Of a stretch of 64,000 nucleotides of DNA, positions 1 to 58,220 are shown one piece after another. Source of the DNA: Alphaproteobacteria bacterium (GTDB lineage: Bacteria; Pseudomonadota; Alphaproteobacteria; Rickettsiales; SXRF01); contig JABDCD010000001.1 in NCBI GenBank assembly GCA_013288305.1, forward strand, positions 4,923 to 68,922, given 5' to 3'. The translations under genes and the position numbers were made by a program. A model generated the notes under the pieces. It saw nothing but the letters and a program-made list of their open reading frames with translations, had not been told where the DNA came from and searched no databases. Position 1 is the stretch's first letter. Each line of letters starts with the position of its first letter.

Positions 1-1122
1 GAGATGAGCTTCGTGACCCAAGAGGATGTTTTTGCTGCCATCGAGCCGGTACTGCACGGCGTCTTCACCGAGTTCGGCGGCGATAAAAAAGTAACGCCCG
101 CCCCGTTCCCGCGCATGACCTATAAAGACGCCATGCTGAAATACGGCAGCGACAAGCCGGACTTGCGCAATCCCATTGAAATCGTCGATGTGACGGAAGA
201 ATTTAAACATGAAACCGTTACCTTTAACGCCTTCCGTAAGATCATCGAAGCAGGCGGCGTCGTGCGCGCCATCGCGGCGCCGAAAACCGGCAAGCATCCG
301 CGCAGCTTTTTCGACAAGCTCAACGACTGGGCCACGGAAGAAGGCGCCCCGGGGCTGGGCTATGTCATCCTCGAGCATCCCGAAGGCATGGACGAGCATA
401 CGGGCGGCGGCAGGGTCGTGGGCAAGGGACCGATCGCCAAATTCATCCCCGATACCGTGCTGGCGAAAATCGCCGAGAAGGCCGGCGCGAAAGGCTACGA
501 TACGCTGTTCTTTGCCTGCGACAACCCCTCGCTGGCGGCAAAATTCGCTGGAAAAGTTCGCACCAAGCTCGGCGAGGAATTAAAGTTGCTCGAAAAAAAC
601 GTGTTCAAATTCCTCTGGGTCGTCGATTTCCCGTATTTTGAATATGACGAGGAGGAGAAAAAAATCATCTTCTCGCACAACCCGTTTTCCATGCCGCAGG
701 GCGGGATGGAGGCGCTCACTACCAAAAACCCGCTCGACATTTTGGCCTATCAATACGACATCGTGTGCAACGGCGTCGAGCTTTCGAGCGGCGCGATACG
801 AAACCACAAGCCGGACATCATGTACAAAGCCTTCGAAATCGCGGGTTACGGGCCGGAGGTGGTAGACCGCAAATTCGGCGGCATGATCTCCGCCTTCAAA
901 TTCGGCGCGCCGCCGCATGGAGGTCTCGCGCCGGGCGTCGACCGCATGGTCATGTTGCTCGCCGACGAGCCCAACATCCGCGAGGTCATCGCCTTCCCGA
1001 TGAACCAGAAGGCCGAGGATTTACTGATGAACGCCCCCGCTCCCGCCGATGAAAAACAGTTGCGCGAATTGCATTTGCAGTTAAGTCCGAAAGCGAAGCA
1101 GATATTGGTGGGGGAAGCATGA
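1..1122 (+). CDS. aspS: aspartyl-tRNA synthetase, C-terminal part (5' end lies outside the window)
   Basis: The ORF is open from the window edge. It has a class II aaRS motif-3 region, [19 protein letters not shown]...IREVIAFP, and [10 protein letters not shown] typical of AspRS. Confidence 0.93.
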
Positions 1123-1763
1123 AGAAAAAATCCGCGCTTTCCCGCGTATCCGACGACCAGGTCAGCCGCCTGGTGTTGCAACTGCGTGGCCACAAAGTGA
1201 TGCTCGATTCCGATCTGGCGGCGCTATACGGCGTTCCAACACATAGGTTGAATGAATCCGTTAAACGTAACATCGAGCGTTTTCCAGAAGATTTTATGTT
1301 TCAGCTTACACATCAAGAAGTTGATAACTTGATATCGCAAATTGCGATATCAAGTTTAGAGGATAATCAATCGGTTAGGAACTTGAGGTCGCAAATTGCG
1401 ACCTCAAGTCTGATTAACAAGAATAATCAAATAGTTGATGGCTCTATACCGCGATTTACGACCAAAAATGATGCATATGGTGGTCGCCGCAAGCTCCCCT
1501 ACGCCTTTACCGAGCAGGGCGTGGCCATGTTATCCAGCGTACTTCGCAGCCCGCGCGCGGTGCAGATGAACATCGCCATCATGCGCGCCTTTGTGAGCCT
1601 GCGTGGGATGATGCGCTCGCAGGATACCATCAAGCAGGAGCTGGCGTCGCTGAAGCGCCAATACAAGGATCATGACAATCAGATCAAAACCATTTTCCTG
1701 CTGATCGATGAGATCATGGCGCCGCCGCCGCTGCCTAAGAAACACAAGATCGGTTTTATTTAG
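1119..1763 (+). CDS. ORF6N/KilA-N-type DNA-binding domain protein
   Basis: [17 protein letters not shown]...[20 protein letters not shown] and [22 protein letters not shown] are typical of ORF6N proteins. Its start overlaps the aspS stop (ATGA). The central segment is AT-rich. Confidence 0.8.
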
Positions 1764-1771
1764 CGTAGGCT

Positions 1772-2710
1772 ATGCGTATCGCCCTCATCCAACTCACCAG
1801 CGGTGCAAACATCGCCGCCAATATTGCTAAAATCGAAACGCTGGTGAAACAGGCAGCGGGGCAGGGGGCCGAGCTTGTCGCGCTGCCGGAGAATGCATTC
1901 TACATGCGCGCTGAGGGGGAGGCTGCCGCACCGAAATATACGCAAGTTGAACATCCCGGCGTCGCCGCCGCGGCGCGGATGGCGAAGGAAAATCATATAT
2001 GGCTGTTGGCGGGAAGTGTGGCGGTAAAAAATGCTGAGTGCACAGGGCTGAGTGCAGAGGAAGAAAATAATCCGGGACTTAGCACTCAGCACTCAGCACT
2101 CACTTACAACCGCTCCATTCTCTTCAACCCCGAGGGTGAAATCGCCGCGCAGTACGATAAAATTCACCTCTTCGATGTCGATGTCGGCGACGGGCAGACC
2201 TACCGCGAATCGGCGAGGATATTGCCGGGGGAGAAGGCGGTGGTGGTAAGAATGGATGTGGAGAGATGGAGATGTGAAGATGTGGTAAAAAAAGAAAATT
2301 CTCTTTCTTCACATCCCCACATCCTCACATCCCCACATCCCGCCCTCGGCCTCACCATCTGCTACGACCTCCGCTTCCCGCAGCTATACCGCGCGCTGGC
2401 CAAGGCGGGGGCGCAGATTCTCGCCGTGCCGTCGGCGTTTACGGTAGTGACCGGCGAGGCGCACTGGCACGTGCTGCTGCGCGCACGCGCCATCGAGAAC
2501 GGCTGCTTCGTCATCGCCCCGGCGCAAACCGGTACGCACCCGGGCAACCGCAAAACCTACGGCCATTCGCTCATCGTCGACCCCTGGGGAAAAATCCTGG
2601 CCGACGGCGGGACGGAAGAGGGAGTGGTTATGGCTGAGATTGATCTGGATGAAGTAAAGCGCGTCCGAACGAAATTGCCCAGCCTGGAACATGATAGGGA
2701 GTTTGCTTGA
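1772..2710 (+). CDS. carbon-nitrogen hydrolase (Nit/nitrilase superfamily) carrying two in-frame repeat insertions
   Basis: [21 protein letters not shown] and [18 protein letters not shown] give the Glu-Lys-Cys CN-hydrolase signature. It is interrupted at 2033-2103 and 2254-2340. Confidence 0.88.
2033..2103. repeat. tandem-heptamer-arm hairpin, family B (GCTGAGT), in frame in the Nit hydrolase
   Basis: gctgagtgcacagggctgagtgcagagg / loop aagaaaataatcc / agcactcagcactcagcactcac. Confidence 0.85.
2254..2340. repeat. tandem-unit-arm hairpin, family A (GGATGTGG), in frame in the Nit hydrolase
   Basis: ggatgtggagagatggagatgtgaagatgtgg / loop taaaaaaagaaaatt / cacatccccacatcctcacatccccacatcc. Confidence 0.88.
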
Positions 2711-2770
2711 CAGAAGGTTAATATCTGCTAGCAATGTTGCCCCGCCTCTAAACTAACGACAGGAAAATTT

Positions 2771-3370
2771 ATGGCTCTCCCGCAACGTTACAATATCGAT
2801 TTTGGTCAATATAATCCCGTGAAAGAGACGCTGGGCGACCTTCTACTCGTTTTCAGAGAAATGTACGAGGTTATCGAAAATTGGGATGTTATGGAAGCGA
2901 ATGCAGTGAAACAGGAAGCAATAATGCGAGATTGTGGGGCAATGGAATTTAATCCACGTCCGGGGGAGAGCATCTCCATGTTGCGCAAGCTGCAAAGTGA
3001 CCTGGTCGGTCCCAGGCATATGGATAGGTTGCAGATCAAGGAATTAGCGGGGCGCTGGGAGTCATGCCTAGATAAACTGCTCGGATTTTATCAGGGTAGA
3101 GAAAACCGTCCGGGGGGATTTGCCAATGCACAAGAGGCTGCATCCCTGTTCGATTTCTTGTGGCTTCCCGGTTCAGGGGTGCCACGTCCTGAGGAATCGC
3201 CTTTGCACCGGTTACTTGATGTTGCCTGCGAGATTCGCAATCAACAAGTGGAGTTTGACAGGCACGGAGATTGGTCATGTTCGGGGAAAACTATACGCGA
3301 ATTGCTATATGCTATTCATACCGATATAGCAGCCGATATTCCGAAAGCTAAAAAAGAGGTCACTAGATAG
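2771..3370 (+). CDS. hypothetical protein (orphan, AT-shifted)
   Basis: 199-aa ORF with no motif I recognise. G+C is lower than in the neighbours. It converges on ubiG with an 8-nt overlap. Confidence 0.5.
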   Translation: MALPQRYNIDFGQYNPVKETLGDLLLVFREMYEVIENWDVMEANAVKQEAIMRDCGAMEFNPRPGESISMLRKLQSDLVGPRHMDRLQIKELAGRWESCLDKLLGFYQGRENRPGGFANAQEAASLFDFLWLPGSGVPRPEESPLHRLLDVACEIRNQQVEFDRHGDWSCSGKTIRELLYAIHTDIAADIPKAKKEVTR

Positions 3371-4223
3371 CTTTCCTCCCCGCCACCATATAATTCACCG
3401 CCAAATCCCCCGCATCCAGCCGCCATTCAAACGTCAGCGGATTCATCGCCATCCCGGTCATTTCCAGTATCTCGATATGATGATGGCGCAGATGGGCGCA
3501 GAGTTCCGACGGCCGCAGGAATTTATGCCAGTCATGCGTGCCGACGGGCAGCAAGCCGCACACATATTCCGCGCCGAGAATAGCCAGGGCGAAGGATTTC
3601 GCCGTGCGGTTGAGCGTGGAATAGATGATGAGTCCGCCCGGCTTCAGCAGCGCGCAGCTTGCCGCCACGAACGCCTCGACATCGGCGACATGCTCGATGA
3701 TTTCCAGCGCCAGCACGACGTCATATAGTGCTGAGTGCTGAGCGTTAAGTAGCGAGTTGTTTTTTTTCTCAGCACTCAGCATTGTGCACTCAGCACTTAA
3801 CTCCTCCACCGCCGCGCACCGATAATCAATCTCCAGCCCGCCCCGCTCGGCATGAAGCCTCGCCACCGCGATGTTTTTTTCCGAAGCGTCGATGGCGGTG
3901 ACGCGTGCGCCCAGCCGCGCCATCGGTTCGGCGATCAGCCCGCCGCCGCAGCCGATGTCTAAAAGGCGTAAGCCTTTTAGGGGATGTGGGGATGTGGGGA
4001 TGTGGGGATATGAGGATGAAGCCCTATCGTCTTTTTTCTCCACATCTCCACATCTCCACATCTCCACGTCGCGCTTCGATATCTGCTCCACTATCCACCC
4101 AATCCTTATCGGATTCATCCGATGCAGCGGCTTGAATTTGCCCTGCGGATTCCACCATTCCCCGGCGATGCGCGAGAAGCGCTCGATCTCGTCCTTATCG
4201 ACAGTGCTTGTGGCAGTAACCAT
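3363..4223 (-). CDS. ubiG: ubiquinone biosynthesis O-methyltransferase carrying two in-frame repeat insertions
   Basis: EIERFSRIAGEWWNPQGKFKPLHRMNPIR, the SAM motif LLDIGCGGGLIAEPMARLG, and LKPGGLIIYSTLNRT. Confidence 0.9.
   Translation of the reverse strand: MVTATSTVDKDEIERFSRIAGEWWNPQGKFKPLHRMNPIRIGWIVEQISKRDVEMWRCGDVEKKDDRASSSYPHIPTSPHPLKGLRLLDIGCGGGLIAEPMARLGARVTAIDASEKNIAVARLHAERGGLEIDYRCAAVEELSAECTMLSAEKKNNSLLNAQHSALYDVVLALEIIEHVADVEAFVAASCALLKPGGLIIYSTLNRTAKSFALAILGAEYVCGLLPVGTHDWHKFLRPSELCAHLRHHHIEILEMTGMAMNPLTFEWRLDAGDLAVNYMVAGRKAI
3727..3797. repeat. family B hairpin, in frame in ubiG
   Basis: agtgctgagtgctgagc ... T-run loop ... ctcagcactcagcattgtgcactcagcact. Confidence 0.85.
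3980..4067. repeat. family A hairpin, in frame in ubiG
   Basis: ggggatgtggggatgtggggatgtggggatatgagg ... ctccacatctccacatctccacatctccac. Confidence 0.88.
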
Positions 4224-4273: not shown

Positions 4274-4660
4274 ATGCCCGGGCAAAAGCCGAATCTAAAA
4301 ACGATGCTGTGGGAACCCCTGGCGCAGGAGGCGTGGACGCTGGGCGATAAGCTGGTGCGCCGGGTATTCGGCGCAGCGGAAGGCTGGGAGAAGCGCCGCG
4401 ACATCGTGAAGAACAATTACGACCTCGGCGTGCGCTACCTCAAAGACGGCTATGTGGGCGATGCCATGTTCCGCTTCAAGCTCGTGACCTGGCTCGACCC
4501 CAGCCATGCCGAGGGCTGGTACGGCCTGGGCGCCGCGTATGTTGCCGGCGGCAAGCAGGCGGCGGCGGAAAAAGCGCTCAAAAAAACCCTGGAGATCAAA
4601 CCCGATTATCCGGAAGCGTCGCAACTGCTGGCAACCCTCGAAGGCAACGCTGCGCAATGA
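4274..4660 (+). CDS. tetratricopeptide-repeat protein
   Basis: TPR-like repeats: GDAMFRFKLVTWLDPSHAEGWYGLGAAYVAGGKQAAAEKALKKTLEIKPDYPEA. The start is uncertain; 4313 is an alternative. Confidence 0.65.
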   Translation: MPGQKPNLKTMLWEPLAQEAWTLGDKLVRRVFGAAEGWEKRRDIVKNNYDLGVRYLKDGYVGDAMFRFKLVTWLDPSHAEGWYGLGAAYVAGGKQAAAEKALKKTLEIKPDYPEASQLLATLEGNAAQ

Positions 4661-5109
4661 CGGAAATAACCCTCCGCCCCGCCACTGAATCCGAGGCGAA
4701 AATACTTACAGCGATACATCAAGAATGCTTTCCAACTTATTGGAGTATAAATTCATTTAATGATTTCTTCTCCGTGGACGGAACGCTGGCGCTGCTAGCT
4801 GAAAATCCCCATGCTGTCGGCATGATGGTCTACCGCCTCCACCATGAGCAGGCCGATATTATCACCATCGCCGTCCGCCCTGCCTGCCGCCGCCGCGGCA
4901 TCGCCCGTGCCCTGCTGGCGCAGGCCATGCAGACCATGGCCTCACGCGGCGTAAACGCCATCTTCCTCGACGTCGAGGACGGCAACGTCGCCGCGCTGCA
5001 ACTCTATGAAACGCATGGCTTTACCGTCATCAACCGCCGCAAGCACTATTATAAGCAAAAGGACGGAAGTTTCACGGATGCGCTTGTCATGACGCGGAAA
5101 TTAAGTTAG
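4657..5109 (+). CDS. rimI: ribosomal-protein-alanine N-acetyltransferase (GNAT)
   Basis: GNAT motif A, IAVRPACRRRGIARALL, and a RimI-like length. Its start overlaps the upstream stop (ATGA). Confidence 0.8.
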   Translation: MTEITLRPATESEAKILTAIHQECFPTYWSINSFNDFFSVDGTLALLAENPHAVGMMVYRLHHEQADIITIAVRPACRRRGIARALLAQAMQTMASRGVNAIFLDVEDGNVAALQLYETHGFTVINRRKHYYKQKDGSFTDALVMTRKLS

Positions 5110-5189
5110 TGGTCAGTGGCCGGTTGTCAGTGGCCAGTCAGACAGCCAGTTTCGCGCCCTTACTGACCACTGGTCACTGATCACTGGAC
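5110..5189. repeat. hairpin family C (GTCAGTGGCC), intergenic rimI|lysC
   Basis: tggtcagtggccggttgtcagtggccagtcag ... ctgaccactggtcactgatcactggac. It starts directly after the rimI stop. Confidence 0.8.
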
Positions 5190-5199
5190 ACTACAAATT

Positions 5200-7010: not shown

Positions 7011-8135
7011 ATGACTAACCATTTAAATTCTCTGTGGCGGCGCGGCGCCCACTTCCTTGGCTGCCAGTACGCCATCATGGGCGGGGCGATGTCGTGGGTT
7101 TCCGAGCGCAACCTGGTGGCGGCGCTTTCCAACGCCGGGGCGTTCGGTGTGATTGCCTGTAGTTCAATGTCGCCGGAATTGCTGGATAAGGAGATTACTG
7201 AAACCAAAAAACTTCTTACTTCCCCCTCCCCCGGTCGGGGGGAGGGCCGGGGAGGGGGTGACAAGGGAAATATTACTCGTGAAGCCCCCTCCCTAACCCT
7301 CCCCCCTGCAGGGGGAGGGGACAAGGTGCCCTTCGGCGTCAACCTCATTATCATGCACCCGCAGATGGATGCGCTCATCGAAGTCTGCAAAAAGCACAAC
7401 GTCTCGCACGTCGTGCTGGCGGGCGGCATTCCCAAGGATGGCTGGATCAAGGCGATCAAGGCCTATGGGGCGAAGGTGCTGTGCTTCGCGCCATCGGCCA
7501 TCATCGGCCGCAAGCTGGTGCGCCTCGGCGCCGACGCGCTGGTGATCGAGGGCATGGAGGCGGGCGGCCATATCGGCCCGGTCTCGACCTCGGTGCTGGC
7601 GCAGGAAATCCTGCCGCACATGAAAGACGTGCCGGTGTTCATCGCCGGCGGCATCGGCCGCGGCGAGGCCATCGCCGCCTATCTCGAAATGGGCGCATCC
7701 GGCGTCCAGCTGGGCACGCGCTTTGTCTGCGCCACCGAGTGCATCGCCCACCCGAACTTCAAGGAATGCTTCATCCGCAGCCAGTCGCGCGATGCCATCC
7801 CCTCGGTGCAGATCGACCCGGATTTCCCGGTCATCCCCGTGCGCGCCATCGCCAACAAAGCCACCGACGCCTTCACCCGGATGCAGCACGAAGTCATCGC
7901 CGAATTCAAGAGCGGCAAGCTCGATAAAAAAGAAGCGCAGCTCAAGATCGAACATTTCTGGGCCGGCGCCCTGCGCAAAGCCGTCATCGACGGCGACATC
8001 GAGTACGGCTCAGTCATGGCCGGCCAGAGCGTCGGCATGGTCAGCAAAATCCAGCCGGTGAAGGAGATTCTGGAGGAACTGATCGGGCAGGCGGAGGAGT
8101 ATATTACCGGGCGAAACTTAATCCCCAAAAAGTAA
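7011..8135 (+). CDS. NAD(P)H-dependent flavin oxidoreductase / nitronate monooxygenase family (FabK-like) with an in-frame repeat insertion
   Basis: GGAMSWVSERNLVAALSNAGAFGVIA, ALVIEGMEAGGHIG and FIAGGIGRGEAIAAYLEMGASGVQLGTRF. The insertion is at 7221-7326. Confidence 0.85.
   Translation: MTNHLNSLWRRGAHFLGCQYAIMGGAMSWVSERNLVAALSNAGAFGVIACSSMSPELLDKEITETKKLLTSPSPGRGEGRGGGDKGNITREAPSLTLPPAGGGDKVPFGVNLIIMHPQMDALIEVCKKHNVSHVVLAGGIPKDGWIKAIKAYGAKVLCFAPSAIIGRKLVRLGADALVIEGMEAGGHIGPVSTSVLAQEILPHMKDVPVFIAGGIGRGEAIAAYLEMGASGVQLGTRFVCATECIAHPNFKECFIRSQSRDAIPSVQIDPDFPVIPVRAIANKATDAFTRMQHEVIAEFKSGKLDKKEAQLKIEHFWAGALRKAVIDGDIEYGSVMAGQSVGMVSKIQPVKEILEELIGQAEEYITGRNLIPKK
7221..7326. repeat. two tandem CTTGTC-(C)nTCCCC hairpin modules (family E), in frame in the NMO-like gene
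   Basis: tccccctcccccggtcggggggagggccggggagggggtgacaagg and ccccctccctaaccctcccccctgcagggggaggggacaagg. Confidence 0.85.
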
Positions 8136-9338
8136 CATTTGCCGATTGTCCGTGGCTTTTTGTCTTTTTTTCTTTTGTTGCGTTGGTTTTCTGATTGGAA
8201 GAAATGCGCGTATCATATTTTTACGCGCTTTATATCCGCCTTCTATCAGTTTGATTAAATCCATCTCTACCAATGCATTAATATCTCTTGATATGGTTTT
8301 AGGAGTTTTTTTTGCATAATCTGCAGCTAAATCCGCTGTTAGTTTACTGAGTTGTGCTTTTGGAACAGGTTTGTCAGCCTTCGATAAGGCAAGTACTAAA
8401 GTACGCCTTCTTTTACCTGAGTTAGAATTATCGTTCCGAAATTGAGTATGAACAAAATTAGTCCACGTCACGTCAATTTGTTGTTCCCGTATAACGTCTA
8501 TTTGCTCCTTTAATTGCTCAACAAATCCCGTAACTGCATATTGAATAAAAGGCAATAAATCACCCCCAGACTTACTCGCTACATCTAACTGTCTGTAATA
8601 CTCTGTTCGTGTAAGGTTATAATAATTACTCAAAAGATGGGCTGCATCAGAGGGAACTCCAGATTCCATTAAAAATTTTAGCTCTAATAATCTGGCTGTT
8701 CTTCCATTGCCATCGCCAAAGGGATGTATCCATACAAAGTAAATGTGAGCCACTATAGCCTTGATAATACCATAAACGATTTCATTTCCTGCATTGGTAG
8801 CGAAAGTAGTCCCGTTCATCCATTTGCAAAATTCATTGACCAAATAAGGGCAATCCTCTGGAGGGGGACAGCGGTACCTGCCTACAACACGCGAGTCTTT
8901 GCGAATTTCACCAGGAATTACATCTTCTCCAACCGCTAGCTCGCTAAGAATCTGGCTATTAAAATGTGCGAGTAAATCTGATGATAAAGGAACGATTTCT
9001 CCCTTTTTAATTGGCTCTAAAACTCCGCCGAACGCAGACAAAATGTTTTGTATTTCTTTTATTAGGTATTCTCTAGAACGGGGTAAATGAAGCGTTCCAT
9101 CCAACGATTTCAAAACCTCTTCTTCTGATAGAGTATTGCCTTCTATCGCAGTTGTAGCAAATGCACCTTTAGCCAGATAAAGTCTGTGCAGTTTTTCTGC
9201 CGTGTCCGGACGCAATGGAATACCGGCAATATGCTCGCATTTAGATTGAGCTTCTCCTAGGGCTAACCATAAATGTGGAGATGCAGGTTTAAGATCAATA
9301 TTGAATGTAATCCAAGGATGTGTTTTTTTATATATCAT
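8118..9338 (-). CDS. Fic family protein (AMPylase-type) with a C-terminal winged-helix-like tail
   Basis: Canonical Fic motif HPFGDGNGRTAR. An N-terminal inhibitory-helix motif, TTAIEG, fits [ST]xxxE[GN]. The gene is AT-rich. Confidence 0.88.
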   Translation of the reverse strand: MIYKKTHPWITFNIDLKPASPHLWLALGEAQSKCEHIAGIPLRPDTAEKLHRLYLAKGAFATTAIEGNTLSEEEVLKSLDGTLHLPRSREYLIKEIQNILSAFGGVLEPIKKGEIVPLSSDLLAHFNSQILSELAVGEDVIPGEIRKDSRVVGRYRCPPPEDCPYLVNEFCKWMNGTTFATNAGNEIVYGIIKAIVAHIYFVWIHPFGDGNGRTARLLELKFLMESGVPSDAAHLLSNYYNLTRTEYYRQLDVASKSGGDLLPFIQYAVTGFVEQLKEQIDVIREQQIDVTWTNFVHTQFRNDNSNSGKRRRTLVLALSKADKPVPKAQLSKLTADLAADYAKKTPKTISRDINALVEMDLIKLIEGGYKARKNMIRAFLPIRKPTQQKKKRQKATDNRQMLLFGD

Positions 9339-16011: not shown

Positions 16012-16962
16012 ATGCAAAATACCCCTTTGCAATTCCCCTTTTTTTCTGCTAAAGACGCTTTGCGCGATGCGGTAAGGTCGCTCGCGCGGGCCCGGATTGA
16101 AACGGCGTCGCTGGATGCAAGGTTATTGCTCCAGCATGTTTTGAACATAAGCCATGAACGGTTGCTGGCCGATGAAAAGCTGGCATTGATGCCGTTTCAA
16201 GAAGCGGATTATCAGGAGTTGGTTAAAAAGCGCTGCCTTCGTAGGCCGGTCGCGCAACTTATCGGCAAGCGCGAGTTTTATGGCCGGACGTTCAAGGTGA
16301 CGGAAGATACGCTCGATCCGAGGCCGGATAGTGAAACGCTGATCGAGGCGGTGCTGGAATGGGTCAATGGTCATAGGTCACGGGTCATGGGAAAAGAAAA
16401 ATTACCCATGACCTATGACCCAAAACCCATGACTATTCTCGATCTAGGCACGGGAACCGGCTGTTTGCTGCTGACGTTGCTGAAGGAATATGAAAATGCC
16501 AAAGGAGTTGGCGTGGATATTAGCGAAGCGGCGCTGAATGTGGCGCAGGAAAATGCGGAAAGCTTGGATGTGCGGGAACGCGCGGAATTTGTGCATTCGC
16601 ATTGGGATCAAAACATAGAAGGAACATTCGATATTATCGTCGCCAACCCCCCTTATATTCCAACCAATGCCATCGCCGCGCTGGCGCCGGAAGTGGCGCA
16701 GTATGAACCGAAACTCGCGCTCGATGGCGGCGCGGACGGGCTGGAATGCTACCGCGCCATCCTGCCGCCATTGCCGCGATTGCTGGCTGCCGGCGGGTTT
16801 GCCGCCTTTGAGATCGGGCAGGGGCAGGAAGAAGACGTAAAAGAATTAGTTGCTAGTTGCCAGTTGCGGGTTGCTGGCATCAAGAAAGATTTAGGAAATA
16901 TTTCTAGATGCATATTGGTACGGAAATCAGGCAATAACCAGCAACTGGCAACTAGCAACTAG
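16012..16962 (+). CDS. prmC: release-factor glutamine N5-methyltransferase (HemK) carrying repeat-derived segments
   Basis: SAM motif ILDLGTGTGCLLL and catalytic IVANPPYI. It starts 1 nt after the prfA stop. Confidence 0.9.
   Translation: MQNTPLQFPFFSAKDALRDAVRSLARARIETASLDARLLLQHVLNISHERLLADEKLALMPFQEADYQELVKKRCLRRPVAQLIGKREFYGRTFKVTEDTLDPRPDSETLIEAVLEWVNGHRSRVMGKEKLPMTYDPKPMTILDLGTGTGCLLLTLLKEYENAKGVGVDISEAALNVAQENAESLDVRERAEFVHSHWDQNIEGTFDIIVANPPYIPTNAIAALAPEVAQYEPKLALDGGADGLECYRAILPPLPRLLAAGGFAAFEIGQGQEEDVKELVASCQLRVAGIKKDLGNISRCILVRKSGNNQQLATSN
16361..16433. repeat. tandem-heptamer-arm hairpin, family D (GTCATGG), in frame in prmC
   Basis: gggtcaatggtcataggtcacgggtcatggg / loop aaaagaaaaatta / cccatgacctatgacccaaaacccatgac. 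Confidence 0.87.
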
Positions 16963-16973
16963 CAACTAGCAAC
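16849..16973. repeat. heptamer-arm inverted repeat, family F (GCYAGTT), spanning the prmC 3' end
   Basis: gttgctagttgccagttgcgggttgctggc ... ccagcaactggcaactagcaactagcaactagcaac. The arms are about 50 bp apart, and the stop codon lies inside the right arm. Confidence 0.8.
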
Positions 16974-34175: not shown

Positions 34176-34241
34176 TAGGTTCTAGGTGCTAGAGGCTAGG
34201 TTCTAGTTTTAACTAGCACCTAGAACCTAGCCCCTAGCACC
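34176..34241. repeat. tandem-heptamer-arm hairpin, family G (TAGGTTC), rpsQ|rplN
   Basis: taggttctaggtgctagaggctaggttctag tttt aactagcacctagaacctagcccctagcacc. Confidence 0.88.
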
Positions 34242-34264
34242 TTAATGAAAAAACAGAGGAATTT

Positions 34265-34633
34265 ATGATACAGCAACAAACCAATCTCGAAGTCGCCGAC
34301 AATTCCGGTGCGCGGCGTGTGATGTGCATCAAGGTATTGGGCGGTTCGCAGCGGCGGTACGGCTCGGTCGGCGACGTCATCGTCGTCTCGATCAAGGACG
34401 CCATTCCGCGCGGCAAGGTCAAAAAAGGCGAGGTGCACAAGGCCGTCATCGTGCGCACGCGCCGCGATATCCGCCGTCCCGACGGCAGCACGATCCGTTT
34501 CGACAAGAACGCAGCGGTGCTGCTCACGGCGCAAAACGAGCCGATCGGCACGCGCATCTTCGGACCCGTAACGCGCGAACTGCGCGCCAAGCAGTTCATG
34601 AAGATCGTGTCGCTGGCGCCGGAGGTATTATGA
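34265..34633 (+). CDS. rplN: 50S ribosomal protein L14
   Basis: [28 protein letters not shown]. Confidence 0.98.
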
Positions 34634-34690
34634 GGTTCTAGGGACTGGGTTCTAGGTTCTAGTAGCACCTAGCCCCTAGAACCTAGCACC
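34634..34690. repeat. family G hairpin, rplN|rplX
   Basis: ggttctagggactgggttctaggttctag tagcacctagcccctagaacctagcacc. Confidence 0.88.
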
Positions 34691-34712
34691 TAAATTTATA
34701 AGGAATGAGAAA

Positions 34713-39257: not shown

Positions 39258-39722
39258 ATGCAACTCAACGAACTCAAATCCAATCCCGGCTCGCACCATC
39301 GCAAGATGCGCGTGGGTCGCGGCATCGGCAGCGGCAAGGGCAAAACCTGCGGCCGCGGCGGCAAAGGACAAACCGCGCGCACCGGCGTGCGCATCAACGG
39401 CTTCGAGGGCGGCCAGACGCCGATCCATCGCCGCCTGCCCAAGCGCGGCTTCAACAACCCGACGCGCAAGGAAATCGCCACCGTCAATCTCGGCGCCATC
39501 GAAAAAGCCATCACCGCAGGCAAACTCGACGCCAAGAAGGACATCAACCTGGACGCGCTGAAAGCCGCCGGATTGCTGCGCAAAAATGCTTCGGAAGTCA
39601 AACTGCTGGCCAAGGGCGAACTGAAAGCTAAGATTTCGCTGCACGTCAATTTTGCGTCTGAAGGCGCGAAGGCTGCGGTGGAGAAGGCGGGTGGCAGTGT
39701 CGTCATGAGTCATGGGTCATGA
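39258..39722 (+). CDS. rplO: 50S ribosomal protein L15 (last codons lie in a repeat arm)
   Basis: [21 protein letters not shown]. Confidence 0.97.
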
Positions 39723-39785
39723 GTCATGGGGTTCAAGCGATTCACTCATGACCAATGACCAAAAACCCATGACCCACTTATGACC
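39702..39785. repeat. family D hairpin spanning the rplO 3' end and the secY start codon
   Basis: gtcatgagtcatgggtcatgagtcatgggg ... ctcatgaccaatgaccaaaaacccatgacccacttatgacc. Confidence 0.88.
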
Positions 39786-41794: not shown

Positions 41795-41840
41795 CGCGGC
41801 CGTAAATATGACTAAAATCCCCATTCCTTTTAACAAAATC

Positions 41841-41915
41841 GGGATTGGGGATTAGGGATTAGGGATTGGAAAATAATGATTTTTTCCCAATCCCCAATCC
41901 CCAATCCCCATCCCC
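41841..41915. repeat. tandem-heptamer-arm hairpin, family H (GGGATTR), adk|rpsM
   Basis: gggattggggattagggattagggattgg / aaaataatgatttttt / cccaatccccaatccccaatccccatcccc. Confidence 0.9.
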
Positions 41916-41930
41916 TAAAAAGAGGTTTCT

Positions 41931-42312: not shown

Positions 42313-42404
42313 GGATGTGGGGATGTGGAAGGATGTGGAGATGTGGGGAATAAGAAAGATTTTTTCTTTCTCCACATCCCCACATCTCCATCTCCCCACA
42401 TCCC
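42313..42404. repeat. family A hairpin, rpsM|rpsK
   Basis: ggatgtggggatgtggaaggatgtggagatgtgggg / aataagaaagattttttctttc / tccacatccccacatctccatctccccacatccc. Confidence 0.9.
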
Positions 42405-42847: not shown

Positions 42848-42853
42848 GAAGAC

Positions 42854-42919
42854 GTACCCGGTACACGGTACTCGGTACCCGGTGAAGATTTTGAGTACCG
42901 TGTACTGAGTACCATGTAC
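42854..42919. repeat. tandem-heptamer-arm hairpin, family I (GGTACNC), rpsK|rpoA
   Basis: gtacccggtacacggtactcggtacccggtg / aagattttga / gtaccgtgtactgagtaccatgtac. Confidence 0.88.
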
Positions 42920-45052: not shown

Positions 45053-46034
45053 AATTATTATCACTGAAGCCGACGGCGGCATCCGCCTCGACCGCTGGTT
45101 CAAGCGCCATTATCCCGGACTGCAACATGCGTGGCTCGAAAAAAACCTGCGCAAGGGATTGATTCGCGTGGGCGGCAAAAAAGCGAAATCGTCAGACCGG
45201 GTAGAAATAGGGCAGGTGGTAGATATCAAATGCCCGATGCCGGATGTCACAAAAAATTCCCCGAATCCTGAATCCCGAATCCTGAATCCTGATGACATCC
45301 GCATGATCCAAAATGCCGTCCTCTATAAAGACGCCAACCTCATCGTCCTGGGCAAGCCATACGGCCTGGCGGTGCAGGGCGGCAGCAAAATCGTCAAAAG
45401 CATCGACGGAATGCTCGACGCCCTGCGCGACGGCGGCAAGGAACGCCCCAAGCTCGTCCACCGCCTCGACCGCGACACCAGCGGCTGCCTGGTGCTGGCG
45501 CGCAGTGCCAAAGTCGCCACGGCCATCATGCATCTTTTTTCCTCCCGCCGCGTCGAAAAAACTTATTGGGCGCTGGTCAATAACGCGCCGCTGCCGCCGG
45601 AGGGCGTCATCAACCTGCCGCTCTTAAAAAAAGAAAATCCCAAAGCCAGCGGACGTGCTGGCGGCCCCGAAGGAAGGGACTACGAAATCGTGCAGGTCAA
45701 CGAGGAAGGCCAGAAAGCGACCACCGAATACCGCGTCATCGACCAGCTCGCGCGCAAATTCGCGCTGGTCGAGATGAAGCCGCTCACCGGCCGTATGCAC
45801 CAGCTGCGCGTCCATATGTCGGCCATCGGCTGCCCCATCGTCGGCGATCACAAATATGGCGGCGGCACCGAAGACGCCCGTTCGCTGGGCGTCGAAAACA
45901 TCCTGCATCTTCATGCGCGGCGCATCGTCATCCCGGCCTTGCCTGGCGGCAAGAAAGTCGATGTCCTGGCACCGCTGCCCGACCATATGCGGCGCAGTTT
46001 CAAAGCACTGGGGCTGGACGTTCCGAAGAAATGA
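45045..46034 (+). CDS. RluA-family 23S rRNA pseudouridine synthase (S4 domain + catalytic domain) with an in-frame repeat insertion
   Basis: Catalytic HRLDRDTSGCLVLAR and GRMHQLRVHM. The insertion at 45242-45300 lies between the S4 and catalytic domains. Confidence 0.88.
   Translation: MDKIIITEADGGIRLDRWFKRHYPGLQHAWLEKNLRKGLIRVGGKKAKSSDRVEIGQVVDIKCPMPDVTKNSPNPESRILNPDDIRMIQNAVLYKDANLIVLGKPYGLAVQGGSKIVKSIDGMLDALRDGGKERPKLVHRLDRDTSGCLVLARSAKVATAIMHLFSSRRVEKTYWALVNNAPLPPEGVINLPLLKKENPKASGRAGGPEGRDYEIVQVNEEGQKATTEYRVIDQLARKFALVEMKPLTGRMHQLRVHMSAIGCPIVGDHKYGGGTEDARSLGVENILHLHARRIVIPALPGGKKVDVLAPLPDHMRRSFKALGLDVPKK
45242..45300. repeat. GAATCCY x4 tandem heptamer flanked by the inverted repeat ggatgtcac/gtgacatcc-like, in frame in the pseudouridine synthase gene
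   Basis: ggatgtcacaaaaaattccccgaatcctgaatcccgaatcctgaatcctgatgacatcc. Confidence 0.75.
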
Positions 46035-54205: not shown

Positions 54206-54893
54206 GCGAAACATCGGCGCCCAGCGCCTTAAGCGACGTCACGCCCGCGTCGGCAATGCCGCAGGGGACGATGCCGCCGTAATGCGACAGGTCAGGATGG
54301 ACGTTGACCGAAATGCCATGATACGCCACCCATTTGCGCACGCGGATGCCGATGGCGGCGATTTTGGCTTCCCCAAAATCAGGTATCGGGTATCGGGCAT
54401 CGGGTATCAGTATTTTTTTTTCTGATTCCTGATTCCCGATTCCTGATTCCCGATTTACCCAAACGCCCACCCGCCCCTCGTGCGTAAACCCTTCCACGCC
54501 GAAGCGGGCAAGCGTGGCGATAATCCATTGCTCCAGCGTATGTACGTACGTACGTACGTCGCGCCCGCGCCGGTTGAGATCGAGCATGGCGTAGGCGACG
54601 CGCTGGCCGGGGCCGTGATAGGTGAATTGCCCGCCGCGGCCTGAGGGGTAAACCGGAAAGCGGGCATCGAGCAGGTCGGCGGCATTGGCGCTGGTGCCCG
54701 CCGTGTAGAGCGGCGGATGCTCCAGCAGCCACACCATCTCCGCCGCCCGCCCGGCCAGAATATCCTCGACCCGCCGCTCCATCGTTTCGACGGCAGCGGG
54801 GTAATCGACCGGCGCGGTGGATATTTTCCATTCCAATCCCCCCTCCCCTTGAGGGAGGGGGTTAGAGGGAGGGGACTTTGTTATTATATTCAT
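54153..54893 (-). CDS. lipB: octanoyltransferase LipB carrying repeat-derived insertions
   Basis: [23 protein letters not shown], and [17 protein letters not shown]. Start set at ATG 54893; TTG 54836 is an alternative. The track start 55004 would overlap the tRNA. Confidence 0.88.
54379..54453. repeat. tandem-heptamer-arm hairpin, family J (GGTATCG / GGAATCR), in frame in lipB
   Basis: tcaggtatcgggtatcgggcatcgggtatcag / T-run loop / ctgattcctgattcccgattcctgattcccga. The arms are only partly complementary. Confidence 0.75.
54838..54876. repeat. family E module (CCCCTCCCC hairpin) in the lipB 5' region
   Basis: cccccctccccttgagggagggggttagagggaggggac. Confidence 0.75.
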
Positions 54894-54976: not shown

Positions 54977-55061
54977 GCGGCCGTGGCGGAATTGGTAGAC
55001 GCACTACCTTGAGGTGGTAGCGCCGCGAGGCGTGGAAGTTCGAGTCTTCTCGGCCGCACCA
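54977..55061 (+). tRNA. tRNA-Leu (anticodon GAG), CCA encoded
   Basis: I folded the cloverleaf by hand. Acceptor GCGGCCG/CGGCCGC, anticodon stem CTACC/GGTAG with loop TTGAGGT, a long variable arm, and T-arm GGAAG TTCGAGT CTTCT. Confidence 0.9.
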
Positions 55062-58142: not shown

Positions 58143-58147
58143 GAGGA

Positions 58148-58216
58148 GTGCCTTGTGCTTAGTGCTTTGTGCCTTGTAAGAAAATAACGAATTACTAGCC
58201 ACAAGGCACGAGGCAC
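58148..58216. repeat. tandem-heptamer-arm hairpin, family K (GTGCYTT), guaB|rsmB
   Basis: gtgccttgtgcttagtgctttgtgccttgt / aagaaaataacgaattactag / ccacaaggcacgaggcac. Confidence 0.85.
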
Positions 58217-58220
58217 ACTC

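Follow-up and report, generated by a model that had tools for sequence, protein, structure and literature searches.

Rickettsia palindromic elements (RPEs) are palindromic repeats that lie in frame in unrelated genes, where each family adds its own peptide in a manner thought to be compatible with the fold of the host protein (PMC10969869, PMC3184786). Ten families of about 105–150 bp are described; their arms are not made of tandem units and they are restricted to Rickettsia. To our knowledge, no transposase is known for them. Repeats of the repetitive extragenic palindromic (REP) and MITE (miniature inverted-repeat transposable element) type are short, abundant, non-coding and hairpin-forming; they are mostly intergenic and sometimes fused in frame to open reading frames (ORFs) (PMC3184786). 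The same kind of ORF fusion appears for Coxiella MITEs (PMC5896051). Here we describe hairpins with arms of tandem 7–8-nt units in a 64-kb stretch of the alphaproteobacterial contig JABDCD010000001.1, from a genome of 57% G+C. This stretch is called the window, and all coordinates are window positions. Several of the hairpins lie in frame in conserved enzymes, including a Nit-type carbon-nitrogen hydrolase (nit) and a UbiG-like methyltransferase (ubiG). Most probably they are palindromic repeats of a selfish or neutral kind, which translation filters and whose units slippage and template switching keep alike.

An earlier note, made from the sequence of the window alone, reported that nit and ubiG each hold one hairpin of a family A and one of a family B (A1 and B1 in nit, A2 and B2 in ubiG) and that both ORFs stay open. 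This observation is confirmed, and the ORFs and peptides are exactly as quoted there. All four elements fold as DNA hairpins, with z values of −4.0 to −5.1, and 0/200 shuffles folded equally well. When up to two mismatches were allowed, the unit GCTGAGTGCTGAGT had 7 matches in the window against 0.29 expected, and the unit GATGTGGRGATGTGG had 16 against 0.19; no shuffle equalled either count. The nit and ubiG copies are 79% identical in DNA for family A and family B alike, and copies within one family share 75–81% identity. The peptides, which the note called near-identical, agree at 16/23 positions for family B and 20/30 for family A, i.e. 67–70%. The best solved relative of Nit is mouse Nit2 (PDB 2w1v, E 6e-45) and that of the UbiG-like ORF is E. 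coli UbiG (PDB 4kdc, E 2.5e-55); homologues of this ORF are named UbiG in their source records. A2 immediately precedes motif I for S-adenosylmethionine (SAM) binding (LLDIGCGGG).

On the sense strand, A1 and A2 have one A·C mismatch per unit, which is G·U on the antisense strand. For this reason their antisense RNA folds much better (−50.9 and −63.9 kcal/mol, compared with −38.2 and −41.4 kcal/mol for the sense RNA).

The window was surveyed for hairpins with arms of tandem 7–8-nt units by Tandem Repeats Finder and a purpose-written detector. Strict detection gave 11 hairpins in the 64 kb and manual counting about 16, with at least ten different unit sequences (Table 1). Seven or eight of the 16 are in frame in genes, namely nit, ubiG, prmC, lipB and an rluD-like gene. 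About eight occupy spacers: one between rimI and lysC, one between guaB and rsmB, and six in the ribosomal-protein/secY/rpoA cluster (S17-L14-L24 and L15-secY-adk-S13-S11-rpoA). Relatives L120 to L124 contain 1–4 such hairpins per 15–20 kb. The nit neighbourhoods of mostly distant metagenome orthologues served as the negative control, and 683 kb of these gave one genuine hairpin, itself in a relative. Compared with the controls, the hairpin density of the window and its relatives thus represents a lineage enrichment of about two orders of magnitude.

Polarity was scored on the hairpins of the window, L120–L124 and L127. In 14/15 hairpins of the window and 11/11 of the relatives (25/26 together), a G-rich arm stands 5′ of a C-rich one. 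Each true hairpin that we read among the Gemmatimonadota and Chloroflexota matches (L018, L032, L035 and L037) is also G-first, and no C-first hairpin was seen in any of these groups. As an idea, G-first polarity may avoid exposing a C-rich, Rho-loading RNA segment. The ends of the elements differ by family (GCTGAGT, GGATGTGG, AGTGGTC, GGTCATA, AGGTTCT and others).

Table 1. Host genes, hairpins and related elements of the window, with positions and strands.
Feature	Position	Strand	Context
Nit-type carbon-nitrogen hydrolase ORF, 312 aa	1772–2710	+	PF00795, E 8e-58; hosts B1 and A1
B1, family-B hairpin, arms GCTGAGT / ACTCAGC	2033–2102	+	In frame in nit; 23-residue peptide
A1, family-A hairpin, arms GATGTGGR / YCCACATC	2254–2341	+	In frame in nit; 29-residue peptide
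UbiG-like class I methyltransferase ORF, 286 aa	3363–4223	−	Pfam methyltransferase domains; hosts B2 and A2
B2, family-B hairpin	3727–3801	−	In frame in UbiG-like gene, read as AECTMLSAEKKNNSLLNAQHSAL
A2, family-A hairpin	3980–4070	−	In frame in UbiG-like gene, read as DVEMWRCGDVEKKDDRASSSYPHIPTSPHP
h5, unit AGTGGTC	5108–5192		Fills rimI-lysC spacer
h6, unit GGTCATG	16369–16429	+	In frame in prmC, read as GHRSRVMGKEKLPMTYDPKP
h7, inverted heptamer arrays AGTTGCY / RGCAACT	16847–16973	+	Flank prmC 3′ end
h8, unit CTAGGTK	34176–34242		S17-L14 spacer
h9, family of h8	34633–34692		L14-L24 spacer
h10, unit GTCATGR, family of h6	39700–39776		L15-secY spacer
h11, unit GGGATTR	41837–41917		adk-S13 spacer
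A3, third family-A copy	42313–42404		Spacer of S13 and S11 genes
h13, unit GTACNCG	42853–42919		S11-rpoA spacer
Half element, GAATCCY units	45259–45294	+	In frame in RluD-like pseudouridine synthase, read as NSPNPESRILNP
h15, unit ATCGGGW	54376–54458	−	In frame in lipB; 24-residue peptide
h16, unit GTGCCTT	58147–58217		guaB-rsmB spacer, overlaps rsmB start region

The prmC hairpin h6 immediately precedes SAM motif I (ILDLGTGTG) and is absent from the HemK structure 1sg9, and the h15 peptide falls in the gap that separates two aligned blocks of the LipB structure 1w66. The peptide type of the half element in the RluD-like gene recurs at UbiG site 1 of homologue P0124. Some spacer copies overlap gene ends: the gene for ribosomal protein L15 has its final codons in the 5′ arm of h10, rpoA starts within the 3′ arm of h13, and in L124 the rimI stop codon lies inside a family-B hairpin.

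Two candidate identities were rejected. The hairpins do not read as intrinsic terminators: their stems are followed by TAATGAAAAA, AAATTTAT, TAAAAAG or ACAAATTATG and not by a T-run. Several of them lie inside ORFs or between co-directional ribosomal-protein genes. Nor are they a known Rfam RNA, the sole match in the window at the gathering score being a tRNA at 54977–55058. This tRNA gene (+ strand) is upstream of and opposite to lipB and overlaps a long upstream extension of the lipB ORF, which makes the annotated GTG start of lipB at 55004 doubtful.

The hairpins share several properties with RPEs. They are multi-copy palindromes (A three times and B twice in the window) of an alphaproteobacterium, which occur in spacers as well as in frame in unrelated housekeeping genes, where they give a family-specific peptide with the host ORF intact. 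They differ in size (60–92 bp, or 127 bp for h7 with its spacer), in their tandem-unit arms and in the number of unit families, at least ten per 64 kb. In addition, one and the same loop site is taken up by different families in different genomes, and the two arms show concerted evolution. By the descriptions of RPEs, the hairpins are set apart from them on size, architecture and host. The RPE-like behaviour proposed in the earlier note is therefore partly supported: in-frame palindromic repeats in unrelated genes are indeed present, but size, tandem-unit arms and the many families do not agree with RPEs.

As short, abundant hairpin repeats, the elements also resemble REP sequences, REP doublets (REPINs) and MITEs such as Correia, ERIC, Nezha and QMITE. 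REP sequences are palindromes of 20–40 bp that a REP-associated tyrosine transposase (RAYT) recognises, and their definition in PMC3733652 includes a conserved GTAG/CGTC tag. Measured against that definition, the ends of our elements have neither GTAG nor CGTC nor any common tag. Unlike MITEs, they show no target-site duplication in a codon-level comparison of filled with empty orthologous sites. They share no conserved sequence by which a single enzyme could recognise them all, and no gene for a RAYT or an insertion sequence (IS) was found in the 64-kb window.

In unit size (7–8 nt) the arms resemble the short tandemly repeated repetitive (STRR) sequences of cyanobacteria, the TAACTGA repeats of Beggiatoaceae and arrays of Bacteroidota; heptamer direct repeats are described in PMC4679880. 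Those arrays are direct and intergenic, whereas each hairpin of the window is made of a pair of short arrays in inverted order, and many of the copies would be translated. Among the matches listed in a contig search with the family-A octamer, true hairpins occurred in one relative (CAZNPA01), Gemmatimonadota and Chloroflexota. The listed matches to GATGTGGR also included long direct tandem arrays, not hairpins, many from metagenome-assembled and isolate genomes of Bacteroidota (Rufibacter, Robertkochia, Algoriphagus) and some from cyanobacteria. Four copies of GGGGATGT make up a G-quadruplex-type motif.

Hairpins also arise by template switching. During replication, template switching between the arms of an inverted repeat creates, maintains, extends and "compensates" hairpins, coding DNA included (PMC8794818, PMC8604942 and PMC7202029). 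Arm-to-arm homogenisation of this kind explains one-step compensatory changes and the growth of inverted repeats (PMC8794818 and PMC8604942), which is the likeness to our elements. In the mitochondria of Nematomorpha, protein genes contain long inverted repeats, and translation runs through both of their arms (PMC6649704). Unlike our elements, template-switch hairpins and Nematomorpha palindromes are isolated or organelle-specific, and are not multi-copy unit families shared among bacterial loci.

As judged by sequence comparison, the segments in nit and ubiG are lineage-specific additions. The alignment with mouse Nit2 consists of three blocks that leave out Nit residues 88–109 and 156–186. 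That with E. coli UbiG leaves out residues 48–81, and a 17-residue gap at 144–160 corresponds to B2. A contig search with an insert-free Nit gave 80 metagenome nit loci at 50–66% identity. The listed matches are mostly about 800 nt (about 267 aa), almost all without inserts, and longer matches came only from relatives such as L127. The relative L120 (GCA_028873525.1) has the gene order aspS-nit-ubiG-rimI-lysC in common with the window. Its nit is without inserts and has the loop IGKSVDHK (8 residues) at the B1 site and ELPWCR at the A1 site. B2 is absent from its site in L122, L123 and L124. Exact look-ups of the window's own Nit and LysC proteins matched no record.

The earlier note had asked whether distant orthologues carry the same segments and whether the two genes are pseudogenes. 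The segments are missing from the solved homologues and from about 75 distant orthologues. Both ORFs are intact, and the residues for catalysis and for cofactor binding are conserved: E40, K130 and C197 of Nit and the UbiG SAM motif DIGCGGG are invariant in the homologue alignments. As to whether the inserts fall in surface loops, which the note also asked, they lie between secondary-structure elements and in gaps of the PDB alignments; A1 sits 8 residues before C197. AlphaFold models of both proteins have confident cores, and the inserts are modelled with low confidence between secondary-structure elements. The modelled inserts span Nit residues 88–110 and 159–188 and UbiG residues 51–81 (before beta-1) and 143–165. 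B1, with a predicted local distance difference test score (pLDDT) of about 50, is flanked by strands 77–86 and 111–118. A1 just precedes the strand that bears catalytic C197, and A2 is coil with pLDDT <50–60. The inserts are thus predicted to sit in structurally tolerant loops.

The earlier note gave weight to the shared polarity and reading phase of the nit and ubiG copies on their coding strands. This agreement is a fact, but it says little as evidence because it is largely forced by the few stop-free frames, the palindromic symmetry and the non-triplet period. In six-frame translation, B1 and B2 each have 1/6 frames open, and the used frame is the sole stop-free one. The family-A copies have 2/6 and 4/6 open frames, h6 in prmC has 1/6 and h15 in lipB has 2/6. 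The palindrome is nearly strand-symmetric, and both strands read much alike. With a period of 7 or 8 nt, the same cyclic peptide results in all three frames; for example, three 8-nt units give HIPTSPHP.

A perfect GCTGAGT array has TGA in all three frames. B1 and B2 both have a deviant second unit, GCACAGG or GCACAAT (GCAC(A)RK). In the family-B coding copies of relatives, mutations have altered the 5′-arm units with TGA (GCAGAGT, GCGGAGA), and the stop-free 3′ arm is perfect. The altered units are direct evidence of selection that keeps the ORFs open. In 14/14 intragenic copies it is the coding strand that has the A-rich centre, which reads Lys/Glu, and Lys/Glu centres also occur in dozens of homologue inserts. 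The centres of intergenic copies tend to a symmetric A-run/T-run. The A-rich centre on the coding strand fits selection against Phe/Leu runs in surface loops. Neither this orientation nor the G-first polarity is a consequence of palindromic symmetry.

To follow the sites in relatives, we used the top 120 homologues per enzyme, almost all from uncultured Alphaproteobacteria. Many of the top homologues have inserts at the same loops with different peptides. At Nit site 1, 17/115 homologues have at least 8 extra residues, and at Nit site 2 24/119 do. UbiG has two analogous insert sites, and PrmC has one in the loop preceding motif I. In the DNA of relatives, the loop inserts are confirmed to be tandem-arm hairpins. 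The rimI-lysC spacer behaves in the same way: its unit is AGTGGTC in the window, GGTGCTT-like in L120, GGATTCA in L123 and family B in L124, and L122 has a decayed hairpin remnant there.

Other metagenome-assembled genomes (MAGs) have non-tandem, REP-like palindromic-repeat peptides at the same Nit and UbiG loops (RAQRSNPE..IASS..PRND and SEAEGS..RLAQDD; P0026, P0034, P0159, P0010, P0031, P0045 and P0083). Their presence at the same protein sites favours a tolerant-loop filter over target specificity. Two Nit homologues that are 89% identical, P0011 and P0040, differ in that most of the family-B insert at site 1 is deleted (36 residues vs TQHSALKTHSPL), which indicates rapid decay or turnover of hairpins.

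Wherever a contig covers them, the hairpins of L124 were re-assembled identically in nine additional ENA and Logan contigs that derive from other samples, which excludes an assembly artefact. The L124 lineage is clonal, with zero polymorphism across the further samples examined. Some contigs of this population end in or beside hairpin stretches: L208 at the rimI-lysC hairpin and L211 inside ubiG.

These results bear on whether the segments are ancestral or selected protein modules, the genes decaying pseudogenes or the hairpins assembly artefacts. Similar peptides in two proteins, and family-B-like peptides at Nit site 1 in several MAGs, are what shared modules would give. However, the similarity follows DNA palindromy and unit periodicity and not protein structure, the inserts have low pLDDT and the 5′ arms avoid stops. 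Together with the insert-free homologues, the intact ORFs with conserved catalytic residues and the identical re-assembly from independent samples, this largely refutes such explanations, which we regard as very improbable.

In orthologous copies the junctions are preserved, but the units have changed in the two arms alike. The window has four copies of GATGTGGA at UbiG site 1, and L122 has GATGTGAAGATAGAAAGATGTGAA in both arms. The L122 copy forms a perfect 29-bp stem though it is only 70% identical to A2. For Nit site 2, the window has the unit GATGTGRA, L122 has GATGAGRA in both arms and L123 has GATGTGGG. Units also agree within one arm. In family A, the GATGTGGA arm and the complement of GATGTGGG have one base different in every unit, and the arms of the lipB copy (ATCGGGA vs ATCGGGT) are likewise one base apart in every unit. 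From this systematic one-base difference it follows that the units are homogenised within each arm too.

The h7 arrays flank the last 16–19 codons of prmC, which encode the conserved C-terminal strands. Conserved coding sequence (VASCQLRVAG) contains the 5′ arm of h7, whereas the C-terminal tail, with the stop codon, consists of the 3′ arm. An identical layout with covarying units was found in L205 (6805–6942, 58% identity) and L206 (934–1060, 69% identity).

Such hairpins could have originated purely in situ, where slippage and template switching would enlarge a short inverted repeat at each site without movement between loci. The great diversity of unit sequences, the homogenisation within arms with its one-base arm difference, the persistence of sites while units drift and the h7 arms around native coding sequence in three genomes all agree with this. 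It does not account for identical units with similar centres at unlinked loci, as in family A (2254, 3980 and 42313) and GTCATGR (16369 and 39700), or for the three family-B copies of L124. There are about 2,300 heptamer classes, and about 0.03 unit-sharing pairs are expected by chance among 13 heptamer hairpins, compared with three observed. B1 and B2 even have the deviant second unit in common. In all, the unlinked loci of the window share family A (three copies), B (two), GTCATGR (GGTCATG; two) and CTAGGTK (two). Since this sharing is far above chance, some copying between loci occurs, and an origin in situ alone is quite unlikely.

Covariation raises another explanation, in which the hairpins are functional structured elements under selection, such as mRNA processing or stability signals or protein-binding cruciforms, and the loop copies are tolerated by-products or regulatory. 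Compensatory changes in orthologous hairpins, occupation of the same spacers and loops across several genomes, the six copies in the ribosomal-protein/secY/rpoA spacers and the uniform G-first polarity would all be expected of such elements. Yet no sequence is conserved between families, units turn over freely, no Rfam match exists and no T-tract follows the stems. Some sites in relatives are empty without visible consequence (L120 nit and L122 UbiG site 2), and template switching alone yields covariation without function (PMC8794818). We therefore consider functional elements rather unlikely.

We return to selfish or neutral repeats as the favoured explanation. Families A and B are members of a lineage-specific class of 60–130-bp palindromes with arms of 3–5 tandem 7–8-nt units. 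In its layout, a G/T-rich arm comes 5′, an A-rich centre between and a C/A-rich arm 3′. Copies of one unit family may reach several loci of one genome and would persist only where harmless, i.e. in intercistronic spacers and structurally tolerant protein loops. Intragenic copies would be translated, and selection would keep a frame-preserving length, freedom from stops and a Lys/Glu centre. Combined with the non-triplet period and the symmetry of a palindrome, such filtering accounts for the near-identical peptides that nit and ubiG carry in one orientation and one frame. After it has become established, a hairpin would evolve in concert by slippage within an arm and, between arms, most probably by intramolecular template switching. 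With arms homogenised in this way, orthologous sites keep a hairpin while its unit drifts.

Several points weigh against this explanation. Besides the missing target-site duplications, the elements have no ends that could be told apart from their arms, and the scanned ORFs of the window gave no transposase domain; for these reasons we infer spread between loci only from the shared units. The identity within families, just 75–81%, gives no sign of recent transposition. B1 and A1 replace an ancestral loop instead of merely adding to it. Since h7 encloses genuine coding sequence, no single cut-and-paste event could make it. Covariation, persistent positions and the 25/26 G-first polarity could also reflect selection on RNA or DNA structure, and it is from their open frames that the inserts are presumed to be translated.

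Some neighbouring genes also vary. A low-GC3 ORF of 199 aa at 2771–3370, without a Pfam match, lies between nit and ubiG (GC3, G+C content at third codon positions). This position is a variable insertion slot: different unknown ORFs occupy it in L120 (211 aa) and L123 (407 aa), and none is present in L122 and L124. At 4274–4660 the window has a TPR-only ORF of 128 aa and appears to have lost a methyltransferase part: L120, L123 and L124 encode a methyltransferase of 340–348 aa there, to which L123 and L124 add a TPR region. A Fic/DOC-family ORF at 8118–9338 (− strand) looks foreign, because its GC3 is 0.30 in a genome of 57% G+C. Between aspS and nit there is an ORF with an ORF6N domain at 1119–1763 (+ strand), which L122 has as well.

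A full-text literature search found no published description of hairpins with tandem-unit arms. It is possible, and we propose it only tentatively, that they form an undescribed repeat type: self-homogenising, G-first tandem-unit palindromes that spread without a sequence-specific transposase and remodel core-enzyme loops across an uncultured alphaproteobacterial clade. Existing hairpins or AT-rich sites that tolerate them may perhaps be the targets of such spread, through copying or conversion directed by structure. On the same tentative footing, the unit sequence would be free to change while hairpin and site persist, and the same architecture would extend to Gemmatimonadota and Chloroflexota. 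An undescribed mechanism of origin or spread is suggested by the strictness of the G-first polarity and by the recurrent sites.

For MAG catalogues, there is a practical side, in that hairpin inserts inflate protein-length variation and break assemblies. The elements offer a clean case for tracing compensatory hairpin evolution in coding sequence, one which separates DNA-level homogenisation from selection on RNA structure. Nit, UbiG, PrmC, LipB and RluD together provide a natural catalogue of conserved-enzyme loops that tolerate 20–30 extra residues. If our explanation is true, RPE-like selfish DNA inside proteins would not be confined to Rickettsia but would be wider among uncultured Alphaproteobacteria.

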